Assembly: GCA_944384525.1 (NCBI GenBank)
Contig: CALWTR010000046.1
Location: 3,868-67,867, forward strand
Origin: an uncultured Clostridia bacterium
GTDB lineage: Bacteria > Bacillota > Clostridia > Oscillospirales > CAG-272
Length of the DNA: 64,000 nt
Direction: 5' to 3'
The position numbers were made by a program, and so were the translations under genes. Under the pieces are notes generated by a model that searched no databases, had not been told where the DNA came from, and saw only the letters and a list, made by a program, of their open reading frames with translations. Shown here one piece after another: positions 1 through 64,000 of the stretch. How positions within the stretch are numbered: the stretch's first letter is position 1; every line of letters starts with the position of its first letter.

Positions 1-342
1 CTTTCGGCAGGGCACGCAAGGACCCTGCTCGGAGTAAAGAGAGCGGAGGATATGACTGCGCTTGCCGACCGCGCGGCAGAGACCGGAATGTCTGTCAGAG
101 AGCTTGAGGAGGCTGTCAAACGCATAAACCGCCGCAAGAACGACGCAGATGAAGAAAAGCATCTCCCGGTCCTAGACTATTACAAGGACCTTGAAAGAAA
201 ACTGATGGAGAATACCGGAAGAAGAGTACGCCTCTCCGGAAAAACAGGAAAAAAGACTCTTACATTTTACTATGAGGATAATGACGACCTTCAGGATCTT
301 TTGGAGATGATCTGCGGAAAAGATTTTGTCGACAATCTTTGA
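1..342 (+). CDS. parB: ParB/Spo0J chromosome-partitioning protein, C-terminal part (5' end outside window)
   Basis: Frame 1 is open from base 1. Translation begins LSAGHARTLLG (ParB-type motif) and continues through the listed 96-aa ORF to the stop at 342. Confidence 0.85.
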   Translation, partial: LSAGHARTLLGVKRAEDMTALADRAAETGMSVRELEEAVKRINRRKNDADEEKHLPVLDYYKDLERKLMENTGRRVRLSGKTGKKTLTFYYEDNDDLQDLLEMICGKDFVDNL

Positions 343-433
343 CATGTAACCTTTAGTTGTCATTTTGAGGTTGGGTCCGCTTTGGCAGACAAAACAACAC
401 GATATGAATCTGAAAGGCACGGTAATTTAAAAA

Positions 434-979
434 ATGAAGGAGTTTTACGAGCGTTTTTTGGTGATACGTCTCTCTGACTATCCCGGACTCGGAATAAATT
501 CAGACCTTAATATTGTCATTATAATCGCTGCGCTTGCCGCGTTGCTGTGCATCACCGCTGTCGTCATGAATATAAAAATACAGCGCATCTCTGAGGTCAT
601 AAAGCGCATGCTGCGCATTGATGCCACCTCTCCGGAGAACGCAAAAACATTTGCGGAACTTAAATTCACCTCTGAGAGGCTTTTCAGGCTTATTCTGAAC
701 GATAAAGAGAGCAGGGAGATAATAAAGACCGTCGGAGAGAAAAGTTACAGCTACGATGAATATGCCGCACTTCAGAAGCAGAAATATGATTTTAAAAAGG
801 ATATAGATATCAAAGAAATACGTTTCTATATCCCTAGCGAAAGTCTGGCCTCTGCCGAAAAGCTGATCATGAGAAGGGCAGGGATCCTTCAGATCCTCCT
901 GTACTGCGTTGCCATTTTCGCGATCGCCGCACTGCTTGTGATATTTCTGCCGGAGATACTTCGGCTCATCGCCTCATGA
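434..979 (+). CDS. hypothetical membrane protein
   Basis: ORF track 181 aa. Two hydrophobic segments (IVIIIAALAALLCITAVVM; ILQILLYCVAIFAIAALLVIFL). Only 19 nt to the next same-strand gene. No family recognised. Confidence 0.55.
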   Translation: MKEFYERFLVIRLSDYPGLGINSDLNIVIIIAALAALLCITAVVMNIKIQRISEVIKRMLRIDATSPENAKTFAELKFTSERLFRLILNDKESREIIKTVGEKSYSYDEYAALQKQKYDFKKDIDIKEIRFYIPSESLASAEKLIMRRAGILQILLYCVAIFAIAALLVIFLPEILRLIAS

Positions 980-53808: not shown

Positions 53809-54477
53809 ATGTTTTGGAAGGAAATTTTCAATACTCAAGAGCTTATCTGCATGCTCAGGATAATAATTGCGTCCATATGCGGCTTGATCATTGGGTTTGA
53901 GCGGAAGATACGGCAAAAGGACGCGGGAATAAGAACACATACGATAGTTGCGCTCGGATCAGCTCTCATAATGACTGTGAGCAAATACGGATTCGGAGAT
54001 ACCGAGGCGGGGGACGCGGGGCGTATCGCCGCACAGATCGTTTCCGGTATAGGATTCCTCGGTGCCGGGATGATAATGTACAGAAGGGATATGATACGCG
54101 GGCTCACATCTGCTGCGGGCATTTGGGCGACAGCCGGTATCGGCATGGCGATAGGAGCGGGAATGTATTTTACAGGTATTGCGTGCACTTTTCTGCTTGT
54201 TGCCATTCAGTTCCTTCTGCACAGCGATATGAATATATTTAAGGAGAAAAAGTATTATATAATAAGTCTCAGGATAATAAATATAGATGAAGATAAAATA
54301 GACGAGATAAAAAATATATTCGGCTGTAAGAGTTTTATAACTCTGAGAGCAGTCGAGGATAGGTGCGATATATCGCTTAGGACTGACAGGTCGTTTTCCT
54401 CCAAGGAACTGATACATATAAAGCGCACATACGGATATATAGCGTCAGTAGACAGAAACCCTGATCACGGGGAATGA
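53809..54477 (+). CDS. mgtC: MgtC/SapB-family membrane protein
   Basis: The start at 53809 (MFWKEIF) is preferred over 53635. Contains LRIIIASICGLIIGFERKIRQKDAGIRTH, characteristic of MgtC. Confidence 0.85.
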   Translation: MFWKEIFNTQELICMLRIIIASICGLIIGFERKIRQKDAGIRTHTIVALGSALIMTVSKYGFGDTEAGDAGRIAAQIVSGIGFLGAGMIMYRRDMIRGLTSAAGIWATAGIGMAIGAGMYFTGIACTFLLVAIQFLLHSDMNIFKEKKYYIISLRIINIDEDKIDEIKNIFGCKSFITLRAVEDRCDISLRTDRSFSSKELIHIKRTYGYIASVDRNPDHGE

Positions 54478-54574
54478 TTTAGACGCTGTAAATTCAAATG
54501 AAAGGAGGGATTTATCAGTTAAGAGACTGACGGTGAAATTTTAATAATTACGGCTAAATGAAAGGAATTTTTGT

Positions 54575-55522
54575 ATGGTGAATAAAAATTTATTTAAGAG
54601 ACTCCTTTCCGTTACGGTTGCTTCAGCGATGTTTTTTGCTGTGTTACTTTTGACTTCATGCGGCGGGGATAAGAACAAGACTCTAGCCGACGGCCTCGGC
54701 ACCAAGCAGGGCTCTTATGCTTTTGCCGCAGTTTCGGCAGGAGAGATAATATCCGGAATGGATCAGTCGTCAGTAGGCGCGACGGCTAATTTTGTATCGG
54801 CGGGCAGAGACAGTTCCTTTTCTGATCCGGAAATGACGGAAAAGCTTGACGGCTATATGGCTTTCGCTGAAAAGATACTCGGCTCCGATACTCCGGTAAA
54901 AAATGAGGTTTCCGTCAGTGACCGCGACGGATACGAACATAAGAATACTGTAACGGTCACATCGTTCTCCGGAACGCAGACATATATAATGTATTATAAT
55001 GAATCACTGCTCAGGGAACAGGATCGCGACAGATACGGCGACCGCGATGATTGGTTTGAGGATGACGAGGTGGAGACGACGCTTTCCGGGATCCTTGTTA
55101 TCGGAGAACATGAGTATCGTATAGAGGGCAAGCGTGAGGTCGAGGGCAACGAGATGGAGCTTGAGTTCATCGCATTCCTTGATGAAAACGACCGGGTCGT
55201 ATTCGAGCAGGAAACGGAGACGGGAGAGAGCGAGTATGAATATTCGATATATTCCGGCGGAAAACTCATCGACTCCTTCTCACTTGAGGTTGAGACCGGG
55301 CGTAAGGAGGTCTCCGTTGAGATACAGACTAAGGATTCTATGGGAAATGTAATGAGTTATGAGCTCAGTAAAAAGCAGTACAAAAACAAAAACCGGATAC
55401 GTGTCGAATTCAGAGAGGGAAATATCGAACGCGAGTTCGATGTTGAGATTCTCAAAAACAGCGCAGGAGAACGGATCTGCAAATATTATTTGACCGATAC
55501 GGAAATTGAAATAGACGATTGA
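54575..55522 (+). CDS. hypothetical lipoprotein
   Basis: 315 aa. Signal peptide plus lipobox (LLLTSC-GGD). Acidic, with no family recognised. Confidence 0.7.
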   Translation: MVNKNLFKRLLSVTVASAMFFAVLLLTSCGGDKNKTLADGLGTKQGSYAFAAVSAGEIISGMDQSSVGATANFVSAGRDSSFSDPEMTEKLDGYMAFAEKILGSDTPVKNEVSVSDRDGYEHKNTVTVTSFSGTQTYIMYYNESLLREQDRDRYGDRDDWFEDDEVETTLSGILVIGEHEYRIEGKREVEGNEMELEFIAFLDENDRVVFEQETETGESEYEYSIYSGGKLIDSFSLEVETGRKEVSVEIQTKDSMGNVMSYELSKKQYKNKNRIRVEFREGNIEREFDVEILKNSAGERICKYYLTDTEIEIDD

Positions 55523-55530
55523 TCAAAGTA

Positions 55531-55566
55531 AGTCCGCCACCGTATCAGCGATGGCGGACTTTTTAT
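55531..55566 (+). terminator. rho-independent terminator
   Basis: 9-bp stem AGTCCGCCA (55531-55539) / TGGCGGACT (55552-55560) followed by TTTT. Confidence 0.8.
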
Positions 55567-55639
55567 GTCAGATCCACAAAACCCAATCTGTGTGAGAACT
55601 GCTTGTTTGGTTTTACATGTGAGCGGGACCCGAATAAGG

Positions 55640-55668
55640 TTGACAAAATTCGCGTTATAGTGTACAAT
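55640..55668 (+). promoter_or_regulatory. candidate sigma-A promoter (TTGACA-17-TACAAT)
   Basis: -35 at 55640-55645 and -10 at 55663-55668, about 85 nt upstream of the GT4 fusion gene. Confidence 0.6.
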
Positions 55669-55757
55669 CAATAAGGATGGTTTACTATTAGTTATAGTAG
55701 GCACCGAAAATTTTTTCGGATCTCTTTGCATATAAAAATCACGAGAGAGACTTTATA

Positions 55758-57764
55758 ATGAATATAGTTATTGTAATCGATATATACGACATGCTCACGA
55801 ACGGTACTGTTATGACGGCATACCGCTTCGCCAGGGAATTCCGGCGGCGCGGACACAATGTCAGGATAGTTGCTACGGGAGCAAAGGGCGAGGGGTGCTT
55901 CGAGGTGCCGGAGCGGTACATCCCGATTGTCACCGAGGTGTCCGCAAAACAGCAGATACGCTTCGGAAAGCCGGATGAAAAGATATTGAGAGCGGCGTTT
56001 GAGGGCGCGGATATCATACACTTTTACCTGCCTTTCAAACTGGAGCGCAAGGGCAGAAAGATAGCGGAAAGTATGGGTATCCCATGTACTTCTGCGTTTC
56101 ATCTTCATCCGCAGAACATCACATATAATATAGGGATAAGGCACGGAGGACTGCTTTCTTCGTTTATATACTTCCTTTTCAGAAAGAAATTTTACAGACA
56201 TTTCGAGCATATACATTGTCCGTCGGCGTTTATTGCCGATGAGCTGAAAAAGCACGGATATAAGCAGAAACTGCACGTTATATCAAACGGTGTGGAAAAA
56301 GATTTTTCGTCAGTCAAAAAGACGTACGGAGATGCGGGAGAGTATTTCGAGATACTTTCGGTCGGAAGATACGCAGCGGAGAAACGTCAGGATCTTATAA
56401 TCAAGGCGATAGCCGCCTCAAAGTACAGCGACAGGATCCGCCTCACGCTTGCCGGGCGCGGACCGCGCCGCGAAAAGCTTGAGCGTATGGCGAAAAAGCT
56501 TTTGAAAAATCCGGTCAGATTCGCTTTTTACGGCAAAGATGAACTTATAGAGGTCATACGTGCGAGCGATCTGTACGTTCATGCGGCGGATGTCGAGATA
56601 GAGGGGATATCCTGCATAGAGGCGTTCAGCGCCGGACTTGTCCCTCTGATCGCGGATTCGCCGAAATCCGCTACACCGCAGTTCGCAATAGACGATAGAT
56701 CTCTCTTTCGCGCAGGATCTGTAAAGAGCCTGACAGAAAAGATAGATTATTTTATAGAGCATCGTGATGAGCTCAAAGATCTGTCGAAGAAGTACATCGA
56801 GGAGGGGGAGAGGTACTCGATAGAGTACTCGGTCGATAAGACTGAGGAAATGTTCCGGGAGGCGATACGCACTCAAAAGAACAGAAAATTGCTCAACACG
56901 GCGAAATGCCGAAAGACGAGAAAACAGTTCTTCAACCGATCCTGGTTTCACAAAGCGCTCTCCTGGATATTCTATTATTTTATAGCTACACCGCTGCTGT
57001 ATTTTTATATTTATCCGGTATACGGGCTCAGGGTCAAGGGCAGGAAAAATCTGAAAAAAGCGAAAAAAACCGGGGCGATATCGGTGTCTAATCATGTCCA
57101 TGTCCTGGATTCTGTAATGAATGCGCTGGCACTCTGGCCGAGGAAAATGATATTTACCTCTGTGAAAAGCAACTTTCATATTCCTGTGGCAGGGAAAATA
57201 CTCGGTGTTGCCGGAGTTATCCCGGTGGCCGGCAGCATAAATGAGGCTGTTGTTTTCCGCAACGAACTGAAAAGGATACTGAAAAGAAAGCATATAGTCC
57301 ATATTTATCCGGAAGGCCATCTCATAAATTATTATTCGGGCATAAGACCGTTCGGAAACGGAGCGTTCAGCCTTGCATGTGATTCTCAGGTCCCGATAAT
57401 TCCCATCGTGATCGCTTGGCGGCGCCGGCGCGGGCTGTATAAACTGTTCATCAGATCAAAGCCGTGCGCAACTCTGTATATCGGGGCGCCTGTTTTCCCT
57501 AACAGGATATTGCTTTCTCATGAACAGGAGGAGGATCTGCGTATAAGGACAGAACTTGAGATGGAACGGATCTTCAGTCTGTCTGAGGGGCCGAACAGTG
57601 TGGATTATCTGGCCGAGAACGGGATAGCTCCGGAGGAGTTCAAGATAATGACGGGGATGTCACGTAAAGCCGACAAAGTGGCCGATCATACTAAAGATGA
57701 GAGCCGCAAATGTATCACCGACAGCTCTGAAGAAGCCAATAAAGACAACAAATATTTACATTGA
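55758..57764 (+). CDS. fusion protein: GT4 glycosyltransferase (N) plus PlsC/LPLAT-type acyltransferase (C)
   Basis: 668 aa. GT4-type E-X7-E motif (E280...E288, EIEGISCIE). A hydrophobic linker spans residues ~398-425. Acyltransferase motifs are H-X4-D (HVHVLD, nt 57093-57110) and YPEG. Confidence 0.85.
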   Translation: MNIVIVIDIYDMLTNGTVMTAYRFAREFRRRGHNVRIVATGAKGEGCFEVPERYIPIVTEVSAKQQIRFGKPDEKILRAAFEGADIIHFYLPFKLERKGRKIAESMGIPCTSAFHLHPQNITYNIGIRHGGLLSSFIYFLFRKKFYRHFEHIHCPSAFIADELKKHGYKQKLHVISNGVEKDFSSVKKTYGDAGEYFEILSVGRYAAEKRQDLIIKAIAASKYSDRIRLTLAGRGPRREKLERMAKKLLKNPVRFAFYGKDELIEVIRASDLYVHAADVEIEGISCIEAFSAGLVPLIADSPKSATPQFAIDDRSLFRAGSVKSLTEKIDYFIEHRDELKDLSKKYIEEGERYSIEYSVDKTEEMFREAIRTQKNRKLLNTAKCRKTRKQFFNRSWFHKALSWIFYYFIATPLLYFYIYPVYGLRVKGRKNLKKAKKTGAISVSNHVHVLDSVMNALALWPRKMIFTSVKSNFHIPVAGKILGVAGVIPVAGSINEAVVFRNELKRILKRKHIVHIYPEGHLINYYSGIRPFGNGAFSLACDSQVPIIPIVIAWRRRRGLYKLFIRSKPCATLYIGAPVFPNRILLSHEQEEDLRIRTELEMERIFSLSEGPNSVDYLAENGIAPEEFKIMTGMSRKADKVADHTKDESRKCITDSSEEANKDNKYLH

Positions 57765-57819
57765 TCCCGCCGCGGCACCGCGCCTGATCGATCGGACGGG
57801 ATGAAAGAGCGTTAGTTTT

Positions 57820-58929
57820 ATGGAAAAAAGAAGAAAGAAGGCAGGTCTTTATATTTTTTACGGCACGCTGACCGTTTTTCTCACCTCGCTGATACTGTCT
57901 TTTCAGGATATAGGCGAGATCTTCGGCGTACTGTCCGAGGCTGATCCTGTATATGTGCTCTGCGCTTTCGCGGTGCTGTTCCTGTATGCGGCGCTGTATC
58001 CTTTGACCGTTTGTATACTTGTAAGGGCGAACGGTTATAACACTTCGTTCGGCAGATCTTATGCTATAGGGATGACCGAACACTTTTTCAACGGTATAAC
58101 TCCTTTTGCGACCGGGGGGCAGCCATTCCAGGTATATGCGTTCAGCAAGGCGGGGGTCCGTCCCGCGGATTCAACCGGCGTACTCCTGATGAATTTTATA
58201 ATCCATATGGTGGTCACAAATCTGTTTGCCGCCTGTTCGCTTTTTTATTACGGCCGCTTCGCAACGACCTCTGCAATGCATATCATCGCGATAACCGGAT
58301 TTTCGATAAATTTTCTTGTGCTTGCGCTTATGATCTCGCTTGCGCTGAGCCGCAGGATGAGGGATCTGCTGTCCGCTTCGGCGCGAGCTCTTTGCCGGAT
58401 AAAGCTGATAGGCAAGCTGTTGTCCCCGCGTCTTCCGGCGCTTGACGCATATTTTGACCAGGTCCAGAACGCTTTTAAAACTCTCCTTGGGAAAAAGCGC
58501 GCGTTTTTTTCCTGCTTTGCGATACGGGCACTCACGATGGCAGTGTATTATTCTCTCACTTTCTTCATACTGCGCGCGCTGCATGTCGATGTCGGTCCCG
58601 AGCAGCTGTTCTTCGTTATATGCGGAACATCGTTTGCGATAACCATGGTAGTGTTCGTTCCGACTCCGGGTTCCTCCGGCGGCATAGAATTTGCTTTTGA
58701 AAAAATATTTTCCTCAATGTCCTCCGGCGCGTCCGGCGCGTTGTCATACGGGGGGATGCTCATGTGGCGGCTTATGAGCTATTATCTGCTCATGGCGGTA
58801 AGTCTGGCATTTTACATCCGGCTCGAGGCGGCGTTTTCGCGTGAAAGCAGGAGGAGGGAGGCTCAGTCTGACGATACGGATGGCGGATCTGATATCAACG
58901 GAGGGGCGGGAAAGAGCTCCGATGAATGA
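57820..58929 (+). CDS. flippase-like UPF0104 (lysyl-phosphatidylglycerol-synthase TM-domain family) membrane protein
   Basis: 369 aa polytopic protein. Contains ITPFATGGQPFQ and PTPGSSGGIEFAF motifs typical of this family. Confidence 0.8.
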   Translation: MEKRRKKAGLYIFYGTLTVFLTSLILSFQDIGEIFGVLSEADPVYVLCAFAVLFLYAALYPLTVCILVRANGYNTSFGRSYAIGMTEHFFNGITPFATGGQPFQVYAFSKAGVRPADSTGVLLMNFIIHMVVTNLFAACSLFYYGRFATTSAMHIIAITGFSINFLVLALMISLALSRRMRDLLSASARALCRIKLIGKLLSPRLPALDAYFDQVQNAFKTLLGKKRAFFSCFAIRALTMAVYYSLTFFILRALHVDVGPEQLFFVICGTSFAITMVVFVPTPGSSGGIEFAFEKIFSSMSSGASGALSYGGMLMWRLMSYYLLMAVSLAFYIRLEAAFSRESRRREAQSDDTDGGSDINGGAGKSSDE

Positions 58930-58961
58930 GCCGCCGTAAAAAATCGTAGAGGAGTTTTGAA

Positions 58962-59789
58962 ATGATAACTGTCTGTTACAGCGGGAACAAAAAAATTTTT
59001 GAAGGCTTGCTCCTGTCTGTTCTGTCGCTTGCCGACAAGGCGACCGACAGTCTTAATATACTTGTAATGAGTATGGATATACCGGACGTTGATCCGCGGT
59101 TCAGAAAATTTTCAAACGAGCAGATAGCTTTGCTCGACAAAGTCGTGAAAGAAAAAAATCCAGAGAGCAGAGCGACGCTGATAGACGTGACCGAGCTTTA
59201 TCGCATTCATCTCGCGCACAGTAAGAATGCCAACAGCGGATATACTCCATATACGCTACTCAGGCTTTTGCTGGATATGATCCCCGAGGCGGGAGACAAG
59301 GTCATATATACGGATATAGATACGATGTTCAGCGGCGATATAAAGGAACTTTACGATGTAGATATCAGCGGGTATGAATTCGGGGCAGTGCGCGATCATA
59401 TGGGAAGGGTGTTTATAGGCCCCAATTACTGCAACGCAGGAGTACTGCTTCTTAACATGGAGGAAATACGCCGTACCCGCCTGTTTGAAAGGGCGAGGGA
59501 GATGGTCGTAAGGAAGAAGATGATAATGCCGGATCAAACCGCACTGAATAAGCTTGCGCATGCAAAGAAATATCTGCCGCGCCGATTCAACGAACAGCGG
59601 GGACTCCGCCCGGATACCGTGATCAAGCATTTCTGCAAGGGGATAAAGTTCTATCCGCTTTTTTTCCGCATATATAACTACAAGCAGTGGAACAGAGAGA
59701 TGGTACATAAAAAGCTCGGTATCCACGAATTCGACTATATATACGAACTCTTCGATAAAATAACCGCTTCTGCGGATATAAACAAATAA
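58962..59789 (+). CDS. glycosyltransferase family 8
   Basis: 275 aa. Contains YTDIDTMF (DxD), NAGVLLLN and PDQTALN motifs. Confidence 0.82.
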   Translation: MITVCYSGNKKIFEGLLLSVLSLADKATDSLNILVMSMDIPDVDPRFRKFSNEQIALLDKVVKEKNPESRATLIDVTELYRIHLAHSKNANSGYTPYTLLRLLLDMIPEAGDKVIYTDIDTMFSGDIKELYDVDISGYEFGAVRDHMGRVFIGPNYCNAGVLLLNMEEIRRTRLFERAREMVVRKKMIMPDQTALNKLAHAKKYLPRRFNEQRGLRPDTVIKHFCKGIKFYPLFFRIYNYKQWNREMVHKKLGIHEFDYIYELFDKITASADINK

Positions 59790-59854
59790 AGACCGTCAGG
59801 AGCAAAAGATGCGCATCCCGGCGGTGATCAACAGCACGGAGGTAGCCGCTGAAA

Positions 59855-61381
59855 ATGAAGAATTTTGCATCTAAAATGTATGAGTCACTTATATCGGTGG
59901 CTCCGATAGCTGTTATAATCTCGGTGCTCAACTTTTCTCTCGGAGGGATGCCGGCGCTCAACTTCGTGTCGTTTCTTATAGGAGTACTGCTCCTGCTTAT
60001 CGGAATGGCGCTCTATTCCATAGGCAGCGCATCTTCAATGGAACCGATAGGTGAGCATATAGGAGATCGTGCCGCCGCGTCCAATAAGATATGGTTCATA
60101 TTGCTGACAAGTTTTACGGTCGGACTTATGGTGACGATGGCGGAGCCGGATCTCACCGTGCTGGCAACTCAGATAAGCTCGATACCCAACATGGTCCTGA
60201 TAACCAGCGTGGGGATAGGCGTCGGAGTATTTATGCTGGTGGCTGTTTTGAGGCTTATGTTCAGGTTAAGGATAAACTATCTCTTCATAATCCTTTATTC
60301 AGTCGTATTTTTGCTTGCCTACTTTGTCTCTGACGCATATGTGCCGCTCGCTTTTGATTCGGGAGGGGTGACGACTGGGCCGATAACAGTACCGTTCGTG
60401 TTGACGTTCGGAGTAGGCATCTCGGGTGCGCTTGGAGGCGCAAGATCGCAGGAGGACAGTTTCGGCATGGTAGGCATATGCTCTGTCGGTCCGGTGCTTG
60501 CGGTACTGATACTCGGTCTGCTTTATCGCTCGGAGGCGAGTGCCGAAGCTGTTGCAATGACGGATTTCCGCAACTTTGCGGACGTACTGAATGCTTATTT
60601 TCATGCGCTGCCGGAGTATTTTAAGGAGGTCGGTATAGCGATCTCTCCGATAGTTGTCTTCTTTTTGATCTTTCAGTTTGCCTCACTCAAGCTCCCCGCA
60701 AAAAGCCTTACAAAAATCATAGTGGGCATCATATACACCTATATAGGACTGACTCTTTTTCTTACCGGCGCAAACGTAGGTTTTATGCAGGCGGGGTCGT
60801 TTATAGGGGACGCTACCGCCCGCTCTTCAAGGTGGCTCCCGGTGCTTATAGGCATAGTTGTAGGTGCATTTCTGGTTCTTGCCGAGCCTGCGGTGCACAC
60901 TCTTAACAAACAGGTCGAGGAGATAACCGGAGGAGCGATAAAGCGGCGTACCATGCTGTTGTTTCTTGCGATATCAATGTCGATAGCGGTCGGGCTCAGC
61001 ATGGTCAGAGTTGTGACCGGGATATCGATCTGGTATATAATTTTGCCGGTATATGTTCTGGCGCTCGGAATATCGTTTTTTGTACCGAAGCTCTTTACCG
61101 CGATAGCCTTTGACTCGGGTGGAGTGGCATCCGGTCCGATGACGTCGACATTTTTGCTCCCCTTTGCAATGGGGGCGTCTGCCGCTTTCGGGGGGAATAT
61201 AATGACAGACGCGTTCGGAATAGTCGCTTTTGTTGCGATGACACCGCTTATCTCCATACAGATAATGGGTATAATATATAAGATCAGGAACAACATTGCC
61301 CGCAGGGATGCGTCTGAGAAGTATGCAGAACTGCTTAGGCGAGAGGGAGAGATCATCTCTCTGGAGGAGCGAGAGATATGA
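59855..61381 (+). CDS. DUF1538-type polytopic membrane protein (two homologous halves)
   Basis: 508 aa. AFDSGGVTTGPITVPF (aa 166-181) and AFDSGGVASGPMTSTF (aa 418-433) form one repeated motif pair. MAEPDLTVLA and LAEPAVHTLN form a second pair. Confidence 0.8.
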   Translation: MKNFASKMYESLISVAPIAVIISVLNFSLGGMPALNFVSFLIGVLLLLIGMALYSIGSASSMEPIGEHIGDRAAASNKIWFILLTSFTVGLMVTMAEPDLTVLATQISSIPNMVLITSVGIGVGVFMLVAVLRLMFRLRINYLFIILYSVVFLLAYFVSDAYVPLAFDSGGVTTGPITVPFVLTFGVGISGALGGARSQEDSFGMVGICSVGPVLAVLILGLLYRSEASAEAVAMTDFRNFADVLNAYFHALPEYFKEVGIAISPIVVFFLIFQFASLKLPAKSLTKIIVGIIYTYIGLTLFLTGANVGFMQAGSFIGDATARSSRWLPVLIGIVVGAFLVLAEPAVHTLNKQVEEITGGAIKRRTMLLFLAISMSIAVGLSMVRVVTGISIWYIILPVYVLALGISFFVPKLFTAIAFDSGGVASGPMTSTFLLPFAMGASAAFGGNIMTDAFGIVAFVAMTPLISIQIMGIIYKIRNNIARRDASEKYAELLRREGEIISLEEREI

Positions 61382-61734
61382 AACTGAAATTGCTTTTTGT
61401 CATCGTTGACAGGAACAGGGCGGAAAAGGTCATCACCTCGCTCGGGGCTTTGGGGGTCAGCTATTCGGACGCTATGCTCGGAGTCGGGACCGCCCCCTCC
61501 ACGCTGTCCGAGCTGCTCGGCGTCGGAGAGACGGAGAAAGCGGTCATAATGGGCACCGTAACGGAAGACAGGCTGGATATGATCTGGGAATGTCTCAGAA
61601 TAGAATACGGATTCGAGCAGAGGGGGACAGGGATCGCCTTCACTATACCGATATCCAGCGTAGGCGGTCCGGCAACTCTTATGATACTGTCGGGAGGCTC
61701 CGGCGAGACAAAGGAGAAAAAGTATGGAATATAA
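61378..61734 (+). CDS. P-II-family signal transduction protein (paralogue 1)
   Basis: 118 aa with a beta-alpha-beta pattern (KLLFVIVDRNRAEKV...GVGT...EKAVIMGTV...). Its start overlaps the DUF1538 stop (ATGA). Confidence 0.7.
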   Translation: MKLKLLFVIVDRNRAEKVITSLGALGVSYSDAMLGVGTAPSTLSELLGVGETEKAVIMGTVTEDRLDMIWECLRIEYGFEQRGTGIAFTIPISSVGGPATLMILSGGSGETKEKKYGI

Positions 61735-62074
61735 GCTTATAATAGTTATAGTCAATAAAGGTTACTCCACTTCGGTCATGGATGCGGCGCGCGGAGCGAG
61801 CGCAACAGGCGGTACTATGATACATGCGCGCGGAACCGGATCACATATGGCGGAAAAGCTTTTTGGAGTTGCAGTACAGCCGGAGAAGGAGGTCATAATG
61901 ATACTTTCCCCATCCTCTTCCTGCGACGAAATAATGAGGGCGGTGATCGCAAAGGCGGGACTCAATACCCTCGGGGCGGGAATATGTTTCTCTCTCCCTG
62001 TTGATAATGTGCTTGGAATAGCGGCGGGTATCAACAGCGGTGAAGACGCAGAGGATGCACCTAAGCAGATGTGA
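61724..62074 (+). CDS. P-II-family signal transduction protein (paralogue 2)
   Basis: 116 aa (KLIIVIVNKGYSTSVMDAARGASATGGTMIHARGTG...EKEVIMIL...). It overlaps the preceding gene by 11 nt. Confidence 0.75.
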   Translation: MEYKLIIVIVNKGYSTSVMDAARGASATGGTMIHARGTGSHMAEKLFGVAVQPEKEVIMILSPSSSCDEIMRAVIAKAGLNTLGAGICFSLPVDNVLGIAAGINSGEDAEDAPKQM

Positions 62075-62123
62075 AATGTATACATAAATCGTATTGAATT
62101 TTTGTCCAAACCAACGAAATTTT

Positions 62124-62149
62124 ATCCCGGCTGTTGCCGGGATTTTTTA
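62124..62149 (+). terminator. rho-independent terminator
   Basis: Stem ATCCCGGC (62124-62131) / GCCGGGAT (62136-62143) followed by a T-run. Confidence 0.8.
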
Positions 62150-62212
62150 TTCATGCTATAATTATATATGTACAAATAGATGCTTTTGGTTTTCACGGAG
62201 GTTATATAAAGC

Positions 62213-64000
62213 ATGAAGAAGGAAAGGATCATATCACTTATACTTTCATTTGTAATGCTGCTTGGTATCATTGCTTTTACAGTATCCTGCTCAGACGGTA
62301 ACGACAATACAGGTGGCGGGACCGAGGGTCCCGTCGGCGGCAACGGAGACGGCGACGGAAACGGAAACGGAAACGATACAGGTGACGGAGGGCAGACAGA
62401 ACCTGAGACCTTTGAGCTTGTTACTGACGGAGTCGCGAATTTTAATATAGTGTACGGAAAAGGCAACTCATCTGAGGTCACCGACAAGCTGGATCAGATG
62501 CTCGAGGAGCTGAACGCGCTCGGTGCAGGTACCTCGCTCAAGGAGGATTATTACATACGCGATATCCAGGACTGCGAGATCCTTATAGGAGAGGTAGATT
62601 ACCGCGACGGCTGCGAGGTGGATGTTCATCCGCTCGGCCCGAACGGATATTTGATCAAGGCGGTCGGCGAACGAATAGTCATAGCCGGCGGGTCTGATTC
62701 CGCGTTGATAACGGCGATAGACTTTTTCCTCGACAATTATTTAAAGATCAATGACGCGACAGACTCTCTCGGGACAGTCACGATAGCGAAGGACCTTTAT
62801 ATCGAGAAGTTGACGGACAACTATCAGATATCATCGATCTCTGTCTCCGGTAATGATATCTCGGAATATAAGATAGCGGTCAACTGGTCTGACAGAAACG
62901 CATACAGCGGAGCACAAAAGCTGCAGGCGGAACTGTACAATCGCGCCGGATACTGGCTTGATCTGGTCACTATAACGTCCGAGTATGATAAGGCGATAGT
63001 GATACGGGAGGTCGATGATGCAGGTACGGACGGATTCCGCGTCAGCGTCAGCGGAGACGATCTCTTGATAGAATGCTCTTATAACAATGCCTTTGAAAAG
63101 GGGATGACTGCATTTATGGAAGAAAATATCGCAGACAAGAGCGGAGACGTTAACTTCAGCCCGGATTTCTCGTTCAGCAAAGCGGTCAACTATGTCAAAT
63201 ACAGCGAATTCGGTGCCGTGGGAGACGGAGTTACCGACGACTTTGACGCGATAGCGGCGGCACATGCTTTCGCAAACGCCGGCGGACAGTCTGTATATGC
63301 TGATGAAAATAAATCCTATTATATCGGGGTCCACAGGAGCACGATAACAATAAAAACAGATACATATTGGGGCACGTCTCGCTTTATAATAGATGACAGA
63401 TCGGTATCTGTCAGCGATAAGGGATACAATGTCTTTGTCGTGGCGTCTGATTACGCATCCACAACTCTGACGGGCATAGATTCTCTTGTAAAGGGGCAGG
63501 CGAATATAGGTATAAGCCCCGGATATGACTGCATGCTCCTTATAGTAAACGACAATTATAAAAATTATATACGTTACGGCGCCAACGCTAACTCCGGCAC
63601 CTCACAGCAGGAGATCATAATCGTTGATAAGGACGGAAACGTAGATCCCGATACGCCTATCCTCTGGGACTACACCGAGGTCACCAAGGTGACCGCATAC
63701 CGTATCGACGATAAGCCGATAACGATATCCGGCGGAATATTTACGACCAGGGCGAACCAGGCGGCGTCCGAGTATAACTATTATAACCGAGGGATAAATA
63801 TTGCGCGCTCCAATACAACGGTCGTCGGTCTGAAACACTATATAACCGACGAGGGGTCGACCGGAGCTCCGTACAGCTACTTCCTCGGCGTTAACACCGC
63901 TAATAATGTTCTTATCAAGGATTGCCTGCTGACCGGTCACAAGACCTACAAGAATTCCTCAAATGTCAGCATGGGTACATATGATACCCAGGCTACTCGT
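62213..64000 (+). CDS. lipoprotein with pectate-lyase-superfamily (right-handed beta-helix) domain, 3' end outside window
   Basis: Not in the ORF track because there is no stop in the window. The frame is open for 596 codons from the ATG at 62213 (GGAGG 12 nt upstream). Lipobox IIAFTVSC-SDG, a G/N/D linker, and a YSEFGAVGDGVTDDFDAIAAAHAFANAGG motif at ~63200-63290. Confidence 0.8.
   Translation, partial: MKKERIISLILSFVMLLGIIAFTVSCSDGNDNTGGGTEGPVGGNGDGDGNGNGNDTGDGGQTEPETFELVTDGVANFNIVYGKGNSSEVTDKLDQMLEELNALGAGTSLKEDYYIRDIQDCEILIGEVDYRDGCEVDVHPLGPNGYLIKAVGERIVIAGGSDSALITAIDFFLDNYLKINDATDSLGTVTIAKDLYIEKLTDNYQISSISVSGNDISEYKIAVNWSDRNAYSGAQKLQAELYNRAGYWLDLVTITSEYDKAIVIREVDDAGTDGFRVSVSGDDLLIECSYNNAFEKGMTAFMEENIADKSGDVNFSPDFSFSKAVNYVKYSEFGAVGDGVTDDFDAIAAAHAFANAGGQSVYADENKSYYIGVHRSTITIKTDTYWGTSRFIIDDRSVSVSDKGYNVFVVASDYASTTLTGIDSLVKGQANIGISPGYDCMLLIVNDNYKNYIRYGANANSGTSQQEIIIVDKDGNVDPDTPILWDYTEVTKVTAYRIDDKPITISGGIFTTRANQAASEYNYYNRGINIARSNTTVVGLKHYITDEGSTGAPYSYFLGVNTANNVLIKDCLLTGHKTYKNSSNVSMGTYDTQATR

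Follow-up and report, generated by a model that had tools for sequence, protein, structure and literature searches.

A DUF1538 membrane protein encoded together with two P-II-like proteins: a candidate P-II-gated transporter from an uncultured Clostridia bacterium

The DNA analysed here, in the following called the window, is a stretch of 64,000 nucleotides from an uncultured Clostridia bacterium. Towards its end three genes on the same strand are arranged as a cassette (Table 1). The first gene codes for a membrane protein of the DUF1538 family and the two following genes code for P-II-like proteins, here called A and B. The membrane protein gene and gene A overlap by 4 nt (ATGA, 61378-61381) and genes A and B overlap by 11 nt (61724-61734), both overlaps being read in the sequence, and Shine-Dalgarno-like sequences are found 7-8 nt ahead of the start codons of A (GGAGGAG, 61363-61369) and B (GGAG, 61713-61716). 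All three reading frames and both overlaps are as described in the first-pass annotation of this DNA, and the translational coupling which it proposed is real. The cassette is closed by a terminator-like hairpin (62124-62143) with a stem of 8 pairs, 6 of them G-C, which is followed by TTTTTATT.

The 508/118/116-aa gene set is the same in three independent metagenome assemblies of the source species, and it can therefore be rejected that the separate A and B genes are a frameshift or a sequencing artefact of a fused gene; the same split arrangement is found in 11 other species. A search of positions 54000-64000 of the window against Rfam (E<=1) gave nothing relevant, just weak matches of sRNA models on the terminator, and in 11 loci where a long gap precedes the gene a search of the upstream DNA gave no riboswitch or leader bearing on the cassette. 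With these results an RNA leader is ruled out as a clue to the substrate. The sole leader RNA in the 11 long-gap loci is a T-box on the opposite strand at one of them (L006).

Table 1. Features of the DUF1538/P-II cassette (nucleotide positions in the window unless given as residues)
Feature	Position	Strand	Remarks
DUF1538-repeat membrane protein, 508 aa	59855..61381	+	Polytopic; two DUF1538 repeats and a cytoplasmic tail
DUF1538 repeats in the 508-aa protein	About residues 1-240 and 241-475		Charged cytoplasmic tail at residues 476-508
AEPD motif, residues 96-99	60140..60151	+	End of TM3, repeat 1
FDSGGVTTGP motif, residues 167-176	60353..60382	+	Repeat 1, break between short helix 162-174 and helix 178-193
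AEPA motif, residues 343-346	60881..60892	+	Repeat 2, counterpart of AEPD
FDSGGVASGP motif, residues 419-428	61109..61138	+	Repeat 2, break between helices 412-421 and 428-445
P-II-like protein A, 118 aa	61378..61734	+	Start codon overlaps stop codon of the membrane protein gene (ATGA)
P-II-like protein B, 116 aa	61724..62074	+	Starts 11 nt within gene A
Intrinsic-terminator-like hairpin and T-run	62124..62153	+	50 nt past the stop codon of B

The 508-aa protein matches the Pfam model of DUF1538 (PF07556) in two stretches, with 424.4 bits against a gathering cut-off of 22.6 (E 7.7e-128), and its two halves align with 30% identity over 222 residues (E 1e-30). From these two observations it follows that the protein carries a true internal duplication, as had been suggested earlier, and that the two pairs of motifs pointed out at that time, AEPD/AEPA and FDSGGVTTGP/FDSGGVASGP, are real and part of the same duplication. 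In 82 homologues AEPD is invariant or nearly so and AEPA is invariant; AEPD is also retained in subunit A of a split pair from Methylocystis, and the residues E-P-A of the second motif are invariant in five distant C-type sequences. Almost all columns of FDSGGVTTGP and most columns of FDSGGVASGP are invariant, and both motifs lie at breaks between helices in the secondary structure of the AlphaFold model. The C-terminal tail of the fused transporters contains a conserved acidic motif, EIIxL. Two homologues (P0031 and P0035) considered as natural fusions of DUF1538 with P-II were rejected; both are assembly duplications of the membrane protein.

The orientation of the two repeats can be judged from the charges in their loops. 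The K+R values of equivalent loops in repeat 1 and repeat 2 are 0.12 vs 2.39, 3.00 vs 0.72 and 0.09 vs 1.88 in the 82 homologues, and the opposite pattern is also present when the subunits are separate proteins. Residues 29-33 and 279-286 form one such pair of equivalent loops. The opposite charge bias points to an inverted arrangement of the two repeats in a predicted 7+7 topology. The AlphaFold model of the 508-aa protein (pLDDT 85.2, pTM 0.83) is all-helical with the helices broken at the conserved motifs. A sequence search of the PDB with the DUF1538 protein found no relative, and a Foldseek search of the PDB with this confident model gave no match (best E 0.013, TM<=0.21), so that the 7+7 fold of UraA/SLC4/SLC26 and the folds of SbtA, NhaA and ClC are ruled out for DUF1538.

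One pair of DUF1538 proteins has been given a function. A paper of 2017 reported Na+(Li+,K+)/H+ antiport by UmpAB from Halomonas zhaodongensis (PMC5484666). The evidence comes from one study, which used heterologous complementation and everted vesicles; UmpAB was active in E. coli from a clone with the two membrane genes alone, and a P-II partner is not mentioned in the paper (PMC5484666). Two further observations are supporting hints of a cation/proton activity: UmpAB homologues are found only in saltwater cable bacteria, and PF07556 is among the pH-adaptation features of a machine-learning study. The earlier statement that no substrate has been established is thus out of date for the DUF1538 family. 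The pairing of DUF1538 with P-II, on the other hand, is still uncharacterised as stated then, since our literature search found no paper connecting the two; the matches to Borrelia BB0017 and to Methanococcus are unrelated.

UmpAB and the protein in the window share the DUF1538 family and a functional unit of two homologous DUF1538 modules, but UmpAB consists of two polypeptides whereas the window protein is a single fused chain with a charged C-terminal tail. Its halves are orthologous to the subunits of split pairs: in Methylocystis the first subunit matches the N-terminal half (E 1.6e-37) and the second subunit the C-terminal half (E 2.3e-48). Judged from these matches, the 508-aa protein is a fused UmpA-like plus UmpB-like pseudo-heterodimer. 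With the NCBIfam equivalog models for UmpA/UmpB (NF041627 and NF041628) it scores 156.3 bits (cut-off 490) and 131.9 bits (cut-off 500), and we have for that reason rejected filing it as UmpAB; the split-subunit metagenome loci score about 95-112 bits with the same models. As these scores are far under the UmpAB cut-offs, the antiporter assignment is not safely transferable.

The two P-II-like proteins are paralogues (28% identity, E 2e-9). B matches the Pfam P-II model (PF00543) with 36.3 bits (cut-off 25, E 7.7e-9), while A reaches 17.2 bits against the same cut-off, and just 7 of 32 A-type members match this model at E<=0.1. A nevertheless belongs to the P-II superfamily, because the alignment of A-type and B-type profiles with hhalign shows clear homology (99.3% probability, E 3.4e-20). 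The B-type profile matches 22 solved P-II proteins at E<=0.01, the best being NifI1 (9p1x_H, E 4.3e-7), which is also the best solved-structure match of the A-type profile (E 0.019). The assignment of two DUF1538 repeats and two P-II-like proteins made in the first-pass annotation consequently holds by HMM comparison, for A by way of the B-type profile and not by Pfam. A model of a homologue in which A and B are joined in tandem (pLDDT 79) shows two beta-alpha-beta-beta-alpha-beta domains, and single domains compared by Foldseek with GlnK and other P-II proteins gave probability 1.0 and TM 0.54-0.64. The T-loop of B is of low confidence in the tandem model, as expected of a flexible loop, and its sequence is highly conserved. 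In B of the window it covers about residues 36-53.

The residues which bind ligands in canonical P-II proteins are mostly lost. The residue numbers used here are those of GlnB, in whose sequence known landmark residues fall at the expected numbers. Of the canonical ATP/2-oxoglutarate contacts Arg38, Gln39, Lys58, Arg101 and Arg103, only the equivalent of Lys58 is kept in A and B (94-100%), together with the glycine at the T-loop's base, while both proteins are without Arg38, Gln39 and Arg101 and also without Lys90 and Tyr51. The position of Arg101 is occupied by Gly in 80-100% of the sequences, Gln39 and Arg38 are not conserved, and at the position of Lys90 all three groups of sequences have Ile, Leu or Val. 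The P-II B-loop signature of PROSITE, [ST]-x(3)-G-[DY]-G-[KR]-[IV]-[FW]-[LIVM], includes Lys90; the B-loops in the window read G-T-G-I-A-F in A and G-A-G-I-C-F in B and deviate from it. The T-loop is about 8 residues shorter than in GlnB/GlnK, and the column of Tyr51 is a gap in all A and B sequences, which leaves them without the uridylylation site. B retains the invariant G-G-T of the adenine pocket, the G-x-G and Lys58, whereas A has lost the G-G-T. With Gln39, Lys90, Arg101 and Tyr51 missing, A and B are not canonical ATP/2-oxoglutarate sensors, and with Lys90, Arg101, Gln39 and Arg38 missing from both domains nucleotide binding is not assured.

The linkage between DUF1538 and P-II is universal in the loci which could be evaluated. 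Genes for A and B, either as two genes or fused, are found directly downstream of DUF1538 on the same strand in 78/78 species loci from genomes, and the same linkage is found in 67/67 metagenome loci; in 17 of these the subunits are split and there is one P-II gene, of the B type. Conserved adjacency of the kind expected of a P-II/transporter regulatory pair, which the earlier reading of the sequence had proposed to check by gene-neighbourhood analysis, is thereby established; independent gene calls and RefSeq annotation agree with it, and the adjacency is also seen in RefSeq plasmid records from Alphaproteobacteria and Peptostreptococcales. It spans Bacillota (Clostridia), one spirochaete and Alphaproteobacteria, and the cassette is common in Clostridia of the human and animal gut. 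When the open reading frames of 80 genome loci and 22 split-type loci were clustered, no third conserved partner gene appeared, the clusters being the cassette and shadow ORFs only. As nothing else in the neighbourhood is conserved, the cassette is self-contained. A P-type cation ATPase gene adjoins four related split cassettes, which is a third supporting hint of a cation/proton activity.

A and B are one tandem protein, always in the order A-B, at most of the metagenome loci with a fused transporter and at about 65 of the 78 loci from genomes. Paraclostridium bifermentans and Peptoclostridium acidaminophilum are examples of species with a tandem protein. Such a common fusion implies a 1:1 working pair and not a mixed trimer. 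The A/B heterotrimer which the first-pass annotation had suggested is, in its simple mixed form, disfavoured by this stoichiometry. Its other suggestion, that two paralogues serve two separate metabolic inputs, is weakened because A has lost the G-G-T motif and because split DUF1538 pairs work with the B-type protein alone. In the split cassette of Methylocystis the one P-II protein present matches B (34% identity, E 4e-24) and not A. Since split pairs carry the B-type gene alone, B is by this comparison the ancestral partner of DUF1538, and A a diverged extra copy which is mostly missed by Pfam.

Three known systems are of interest for comparison. GlnK is the P-II protein which plugs the ammonium channel AmtB, and SbtB is the P-II-like controller of the cyanobacterial bicarbonate transporter SbtA. 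The cassette resembles GlnK-AmtB in having a P-II-family gene directly downstream of a transporter gene and co-translated with it, and in the ferredoxin-like fold with a T-loop and the retained Lys58 equivalent. The AmtB family is however unrelated to DUF1538, and GlnK, a single canonical protein which forms a homotrimer, binds ATP, ADP and 2-oxoglutarate and carries its uridylylation on Tyr51, whereas the cassette has two diverged paralogous domains without these residues. With SbtB-SbtA it shares a non-canonical P-II-like protein dedicated to one adjacent secondary transporter and the absence of 2-oxoglutarate sensing. It differs in that SbtA is a homotrimer of another family and SbtB a single protein which binds adenine nucleotides, cAMP and c-di-AMP and has a C-terminal redox loop; no such features were identified in A and B.

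The third system, NifI1-NifI2, is like A and B in that two different P-II paralogues with adjacent genes act as one complex, and the T-loop of NifI1 is also shortened. The target of NifI is nitrogenase and not a transporter, and NifI keeps the canonical residues for ADP and 2-oxoglutarate. NifI is a 2:1 heterotrimer (bioRxiv 10.1101/2025.09.09.675011), whereas the usual A-B fusion fixes a ratio of 1:1. No nif genes are present in the window or in 160 related loci from two scans, and A and B do not qualify as a pair of the NifI1/NifI2 type.

The model which we favour, and which by analogy with these systems we consider rather probable, is that the cassette encodes a P-II-gated DUF1538 secondary transporter, possibly a cation/proton exchanger. 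The transporter would be the single-chain version of a two-subunit UmpA/UmpB-type protein, with its two homologous seven-helix repeats placed in the membrane in opposite orientations. The symmetry-related AEP(D/A) and FDSGGVxxGP motifs at the helix breaks would probably meet in the middle of the membrane and form the ion or substrate site. We infer that the module of A and B binds physically to the transporter from the cytoplasmic side and, depending on a small-molecule signal, opens or plugs it in the way known from GlnK-AmtB and SbtB-SbtA, the conserved flexible T-loop of B being the likely contact. Monovalent cation/proton exchange would be the most likely transport activity because it is the sole activity measured in the DUF1538 family, and the most likely ligand would be an adenine nucleotide, bound in a non-canonical manner and without 2-oxoglutarate. 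From the pattern of residues B is predicted to bind adenine nucleotides with no synergy from 2-oxoglutarate, and A alone to bind them weakly or not at all. It should be noted that P-II proteins assembled in threes would not obviously fit onto a transporter of pseudo-two-fold symmetry, which counts against this model.

The same P-II-gated architecture could serve another substrate, a metabolite or an inorganic ion linked to carbon or nitrogen status (bicarbonate, ammonium or an organic acid, for example). In the two characterised P-II/transporter pairs, GlnK-AmtB and SbtB-SbtA, it is nutrients and not Na+ or K+ that are transported, the window protein is no orthologue of UmpAB, and the DUF1538 fold has no solved relative to constrain the substrate. 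We nevertheless find a nutrient substrate rather unlikely, as cation/proton antiport is the only activity measured for DUF1538 proteins, Glu97, Asp99, Asp168, Glu344 and Asp420 are conserved carboxylates in the membrane which suit the binding of cations or protons, the residues for 2-oxoglutarate are missing, and no riboswitch, enzyme gene or regulator pointing to a metabolite is conserved nearby.

An improbable alternative to gating is that A and B serve the transporter as obligate structural subunits and make up a cytoplasmic domain which is permanently in place, has lost ligand sensing and is needed for assembly or activity. This would agree with the strict co-occurrence and the tight translational coupling, with the loss of phosphate and 2-oxoglutarate contacts from both domains and of the G-G-T from A, and the acidic motif in the tail of the fused transporters could tether the module permanently. 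But UmpAB is active in E. coli with its two membrane genes alone, the T-loop of B is predicted to be flexible, and the invariant G-G-T, G-x-G and Lys58 of B are hard to explain without a ligand pocket. There is as little chance that the membrane protein is mainly a sensor or anchor which holds or releases P-II as the output to control other cytoplasmic targets, as AmtB does when it sequesters GlnK: several targets are typical of P-II, control by sequestration at the membrane is established and the T-loop of B is conserved, but a second target gene is never linked to the cassette in the loci scanned, the inverted repeats, the broken helices and the conserved intramembrane carboxylates of the protein are hallmarks of a transporter, and a member of the family, UmpAB, transports ions.

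Few signalling proteins are as widespread as P-II, and to our knowledge direct targets of P-II among transporters are well characterised in two families only, Amt and SbtA. In the P-II-gated reading the DUF1538 cassette would represent a third class, so far unstudied, of transporters controlled by P-II. Our more specific proposal for this class is tentative: an inverted-repeat transporter of a fold absent from the PDB, controlled by a heteromeric A-B module which reads a non-canonical signal (e.g., AMP, ADP, cAMP or c-di-AMP) and not ATP and 2-oxoglutarate. If this were true, the A-B module would join NifI1,2 as only the second known heteromeric P-II, and it would be the first known to occur in tandem. 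Given the universal pairing within the family, the UmpAB antiporter would then also be P-II-regulated, and its physiological role, perhaps even its true substrate, would have been missed by expression without the partner.

The cassette joins three little-explored features, a membrane fold for which no relative has been solved, a heteromeric P-II module in fused or paired form and a ligand pocket without the canonical ATP and 2-oxoglutarate contacts. Understanding it would reveal a signal used by gut anaerobes for the control of a transporter, would be a test of T-loop plugging as a general mechanism of P-II proteins, and would give the regulatory context for UmpAB, the single published DUF1538 function. 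The tandem form of the regulator alone comprises hundreds of diverse clusters, 853 at E<=1e-30 among 1.84 billion representatives.

The first-pass annotation read three ORFs as a DUF1538 membrane protein followed by two small P-II-like proteins, A and B, and all three, with the ATGA overlap between transporter and A and the 11-nt overlap between A and B, are visible in the DNA. GGAGGAG and GGAG stand 7-8 nt 5' of the two internal start codons. Linkage to P-II genes, proposed there as a check, turned out to be conserved. A scan of one genome per species with the membrane-protein alignment as query gave more than 600 matching stretches; in 78 of the best 80 loci, which are nearly all from Clostridia (Oscillospiraceae, Lachnospiraceae, Christensenellales) plus the spirochaete Breznakiella, the DUF1538 gene is directly followed on the same strand by P-II sequence, first A-type and next B-type, and in the other two the DNA ends 34 nt and ~460 nt past that gene. 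Metagenome contigs, scanned from two seeds (the C-terminal repeat and one split-subunit sequence), gave 80 further loci, and all 67 whose DNA extends 400 nt or more downstream carry P-II gene(s) (one P-II gene runs off its contig end). Linkage was scored by our own ORF calling and phmmer searches; the same order is found in independent gene calls with precomputed Pfam hits and in RefSeq plasmid records, where the small genes are named 'P-II family nitrogen regulator'. A search for a third shared gene in the 80 genome loci found, shadow ORFs aside, no other ORF family in more than 8, and in loci with a split transporter other genes are common only to small groups of related loci; the DUF1538/P-II module is self-contained. 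On the strength of strict lineage-spanning linkage, tight translational coupling and repeated gene fusions, we conclude that the DUF1538 protein and its P-II module function together as a unit.

Features of the window and of related loci (L-numbers)
Feature	Position	Strand	Remark
Promoter-like site, near-consensus	55640-55668		5' of three envelope-type genes
GT4 glycosyltransferase fused to PlsC-like acyltransferase	55758-57764	+	directly upstream group, envelope-type
LPG_synthase_TM-family membrane protein	57820-58929	+	directly upstream group, envelope-type
GT8 glycosyltransferase	58962-59789	+	directly upstream group, envelope-type
DUF1538 membrane protein, 508 aa	59855-61381	+	ORF read from sequence
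Tail motif EGEIISLEEREI	61340-61381		codes for residues ~496-508 of the DUF1538 protein
P-II-like protein A, 118 aa	61378-61734	+	ORF read from sequence
P-II-like protein B, 116 aa	61724-62074	+	ORF read from sequence
Antisense ORF, 338 aa	60739-61755	-	rejected as a gene
Terminator-like hairpin, strong	62124-62143		downstream of B
Large lipoprotein, predicted	62213-64000		runs off window end
Separate DUF1538 subunits, two P-II genes	L111 3291-5454
Separate DUF1538 subunits, tandem P-II	L148 42-2118
P-type cation ATPase / universal stress protein region	L094 368-3295; L103 5084-5941
Tandem P-II gene	L089 5827-6669		identical to database homologue P0237
Complete lipoprotein copy, 794 aa	L173 3042-5426

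The antisense ORF, which lies across the final part of the transporter gene and across gene A, is a shadow ORF, since in related loci similar antisense or off-frame ORFs appear only in overlap with conserved genes. At L089 only short ORFs occupy the DUF1538 position; sister contigs carry an intact 510-aa DUF1538 gene, and the broken gene probably reflects assembly frameshift errors, or a decaying copy.

In ~65 of the 78 genome loci and in most metagenome loci with a fused, single-chain transporter, the P-II module is a tandem A-B protein of 220-240 aa in fixed order, belonging to a large family (of 1.84 billion representatives clustered at 50% identity, 853 match at E<=1e-30 and 2747 at E<=1e-10). 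The separate A and B genes of the window are a real minority state, since 11 other species have them too, as do three independent assemblies of the species that the window comes from. Two distinct paralogues had been thought to suggest a heterotrimer or two separate metabolic inputs. A mixed heterotrimer is disfavoured because the fusion fixes the A:B ratio at 1:1, and rather than two independent inputs A and B are better seen as one heteromeric module, in which three tandem chains could assemble into an A3 ring stacked on a B3 ring, or into two rings of mixed composition.

A transporter split into N-type and C-type subunit genes is found on Methylocystis and Chelativorans plasmids and in 22 metagenome loci. 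Against the window protein, the first subunit gives E 1.6e-37 with the N half and 3.4e-24 with the C half, and the second gives 2.3e-48 with the C half and 2.8e-20 with the N half; the N/C duplication therefore predates the fusion. Split pairs usually occur with a single P-II gene, of B type (17 loci). The Methylocystis P-II is 34% identical to window B (E 4e-24), and BLASTP against window A found nothing at E<=10. Of the two partners B is the ancestral one; A arose from a later duplication and evolves faster. Two loci are of intermediate, mixed architecture: L111, with four genes, has separate N-type and C-type subunits and two unfused P-II genes that each pass the Pfam cut-off, and L148 has separate subunits and a fused tandem P-II.

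Protein B scores 36.3 bits against Pfam P-II, above the cut-off of 25, whereas A scores 17.2 and just 7 of 32 A-type relatives match. Despite this, A is a P-II-superfamily domain, because it shares 28% identity with B (E 2e-9), because the A-type and B-type profiles match (99.3% probability, E 3.4e-20, 105 columns), and because the AlphaFold model of a natural A-B fusion (pLDDT 79.4, pTM 0.80) has two beta-alpha-beta-beta-alpha-beta domains which singly find GlnK and other P-II structures with Foldseek (probability 1.0, TM 0.54-0.64). The top solved-structure sequence match of both profiles (E 0.019 for A, 4.3e-7 for B) is chain H of 9p1x, a Methanosarcina nitrogenase-NifI supercomplex; this 105-aa chain is taken to be the short-T-loop subunit NifI1.

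The ligand pocket was analysed by aligning 126 A-type and 143 B-type domains with Thermus GlnK, NifI1 and E. coli GlnB (in the GlnB sequence used, known landmark residues have the expected numbers). B-type domains retain G27-G28-T29 (100%), Gly35, Gly37 and Lys58; A-type domains retain Gly35, Lys58, Gly87 and Gly89 and have lost the G-G-T motif. The Lys90 position is Ile, Leu or Val and the Arg101 position Gly in every group, Arg38 and Gln39 are conserved in none, Tyr51 is absent from all, and the T-loop is ~8 residues shorter than that of GlnB. A and B are P-II-like proteins rather than GlnB or GlnK; judged from these residues, binding of Mg-ATP/2-oxoglutarate in the canonical mode is very unlikely, as is uridylylation, and an adenine-containing ligand is plausible for B. 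The T-loop of B (consensus ARGTGxExAEKFFG) is highly conserved and modelled with low confidence, as would be expected of a flexible contact loop.

The 508-aa protein consists of two DUF1538 repeats (Pfam PF07556, E 7.7e-128, two stretches) whose halves are 30% identical over 222 residues (E 1e-30), so the motif pairs that had suggested an internal duplication are part of a real one. Short DNA similarities persist between the repeats (59890-59913 and 60634-60657, 79% over 24 nt) and between genes A and B (61529-61551 and 61878-61900, 87% over 23 nt, at the conserved EK(A/E)VIM strand bearing the Lys58 equivalent), and are consistent with the two duplications. The AlphaFold model (pLDDT 85.2, pTM 0.83) is all-helical with ~7 helical segments per repeat; the FDSGGVxxGP motifs lie where helices are broken (162-174/178-193 in the first repeat, 412-421/428-445 in the second) and the AEP motifs at the end of the short third helix. 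Among 82 homologues the equivalent loops of repeats 1 and 2 have opposite Lys+Arg content (0.12 and 2.39 for TM1-2, 3.00 and 0.72 for TM2-3, 0.09 and 1.88 for TM3-4), a pattern also found in the separate subunits of split systems, and by the positive-inside rule the repeats would therefore have inverted topology with both termini cytoplasmic, and split systems would form an antiparallel heterodimer. A Foldseek search of the PDB with the model found no relative (best E 0.013, TM<=0.21) and a PDB sequence search no match; the DUF1538 fold is without a solved relative. Acidic residues beside or within the membrane (Glu97, Asp99, Asp168, Glu344, Asp420) are kept from Clostridia to Alphaproteobacteria.

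Fused DUF1538 proteins carry a charged cytoplasmic C-terminal tail of 30-40 aa, often with a terminal acidic '(D/E)-x-I-I-(D/E)-L' motif; the strict pattern occurs in the last 20 residues of 64 of 132 fused homologues from among L001-L080 and L115-L172. Split C-type subunits mostly have tails of just 1-9 residues (L114, with 75, is the sole long exception), these short-tailed ones being partners of a single B-type P-II, and the tail of fused transporters might act as a peptide on which the extra A domain docks. An apparent extra domain in two over-long database homologues of the membrane protein (P0031, 679 aa; P0035, 663 aa) was rejected, as its ~170-residue internal repeat of identical sequence looks like an assembly artefact.

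The statement that no substrate is established needs correcting for the membrane family. Of six papers mentioning DUF1538 that a full-text literature search gave, a single one is a functional study, on UmpAB of Halomonas zhaodongensis: co-expression of two DUF1538 proteins made E. coli KNabc tolerant of salt and alkali again, and everted vesicles showed Na+(Li+,K+)/H+ antiport. Only the two membrane genes were on the clone, and P-II is nowhere mentioned (PMC5484666). No paper linking DUF1538 to P-II was found in the literature searched, so the pairing itself is uncharacterised, as had been said. On the NCBIfam equivalog models for UmpA and UmpB (NF041627 and NF041628; cut-offs 490 and 500), the window protein reaches 156 and 132 bits and the recovered split subunits just ~95-112 bits, and orthology to UmpAB was rejected for both. 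Three weak hints point to ion or pH homeostasis: saltwater cable bacteria have UmpAB homologues and freshwater ones lack them, PF07556 is among the pH-adaptation features of a machine-learning study, and four related split-type loci (L094, L099, L103, L104) have a P-type cation ATPase just upstream, closest to the Ca2+ PMR1 and SERCA models and below their cut-offs, with a tandem universal stress protein just downstream in L094, L103 and L104.

The nearest working parallels are GlnK-AmtB and SbtB-SbtA, where a nucleotide-responsive P-II in the cytoplasm plugs or valves the transporter via its T-loop. By analogy, and as the mechanism that we favour, the P-II module would plug or valve the DUF1538 transporter via the T-loop in response to nucleotides, with B as the putative primary sensor and plug and A as an auxiliary domain presumably acquired along with the fused transporter. 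Our best guess for the transport activity is cation/proton exchange, since it is the only activity measured in the family and suits the conserved carboxylates. With the UmpAB function and the single heteromeric module as corrections, the first-pass interpretation is largely right. A P-II-controlled transporter is of a known kind, and the DUF1538 cassette is widespread and uncharacterised; what is new about it is the fold of its membrane protein, a P-II module in tandem or paired form, and a ligand pocket that is altered.

The gap between the GT8 gene and the cassette is only 65 nt long, and neither a terminator nor a promoter-like site wholly inside it was found, so the cassette may be read through from the promoter-like site 5' of the envelope-type genes and co-transcribed with them; from that site no terminator comparable to the hairpin was found before 62124. 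This upstream context (55640-59789) is species-specific and not conserved across other genomes. In the predicted lipoprotein downstream, the signal peptide MKKERIISLILSFVMLLGIIAFTVSC is followed by a Gly/Asn/Asp-rich linker GNGDGDGNGNGNDTGDGG; the complete copy in L173 has no Pfam hit on record.
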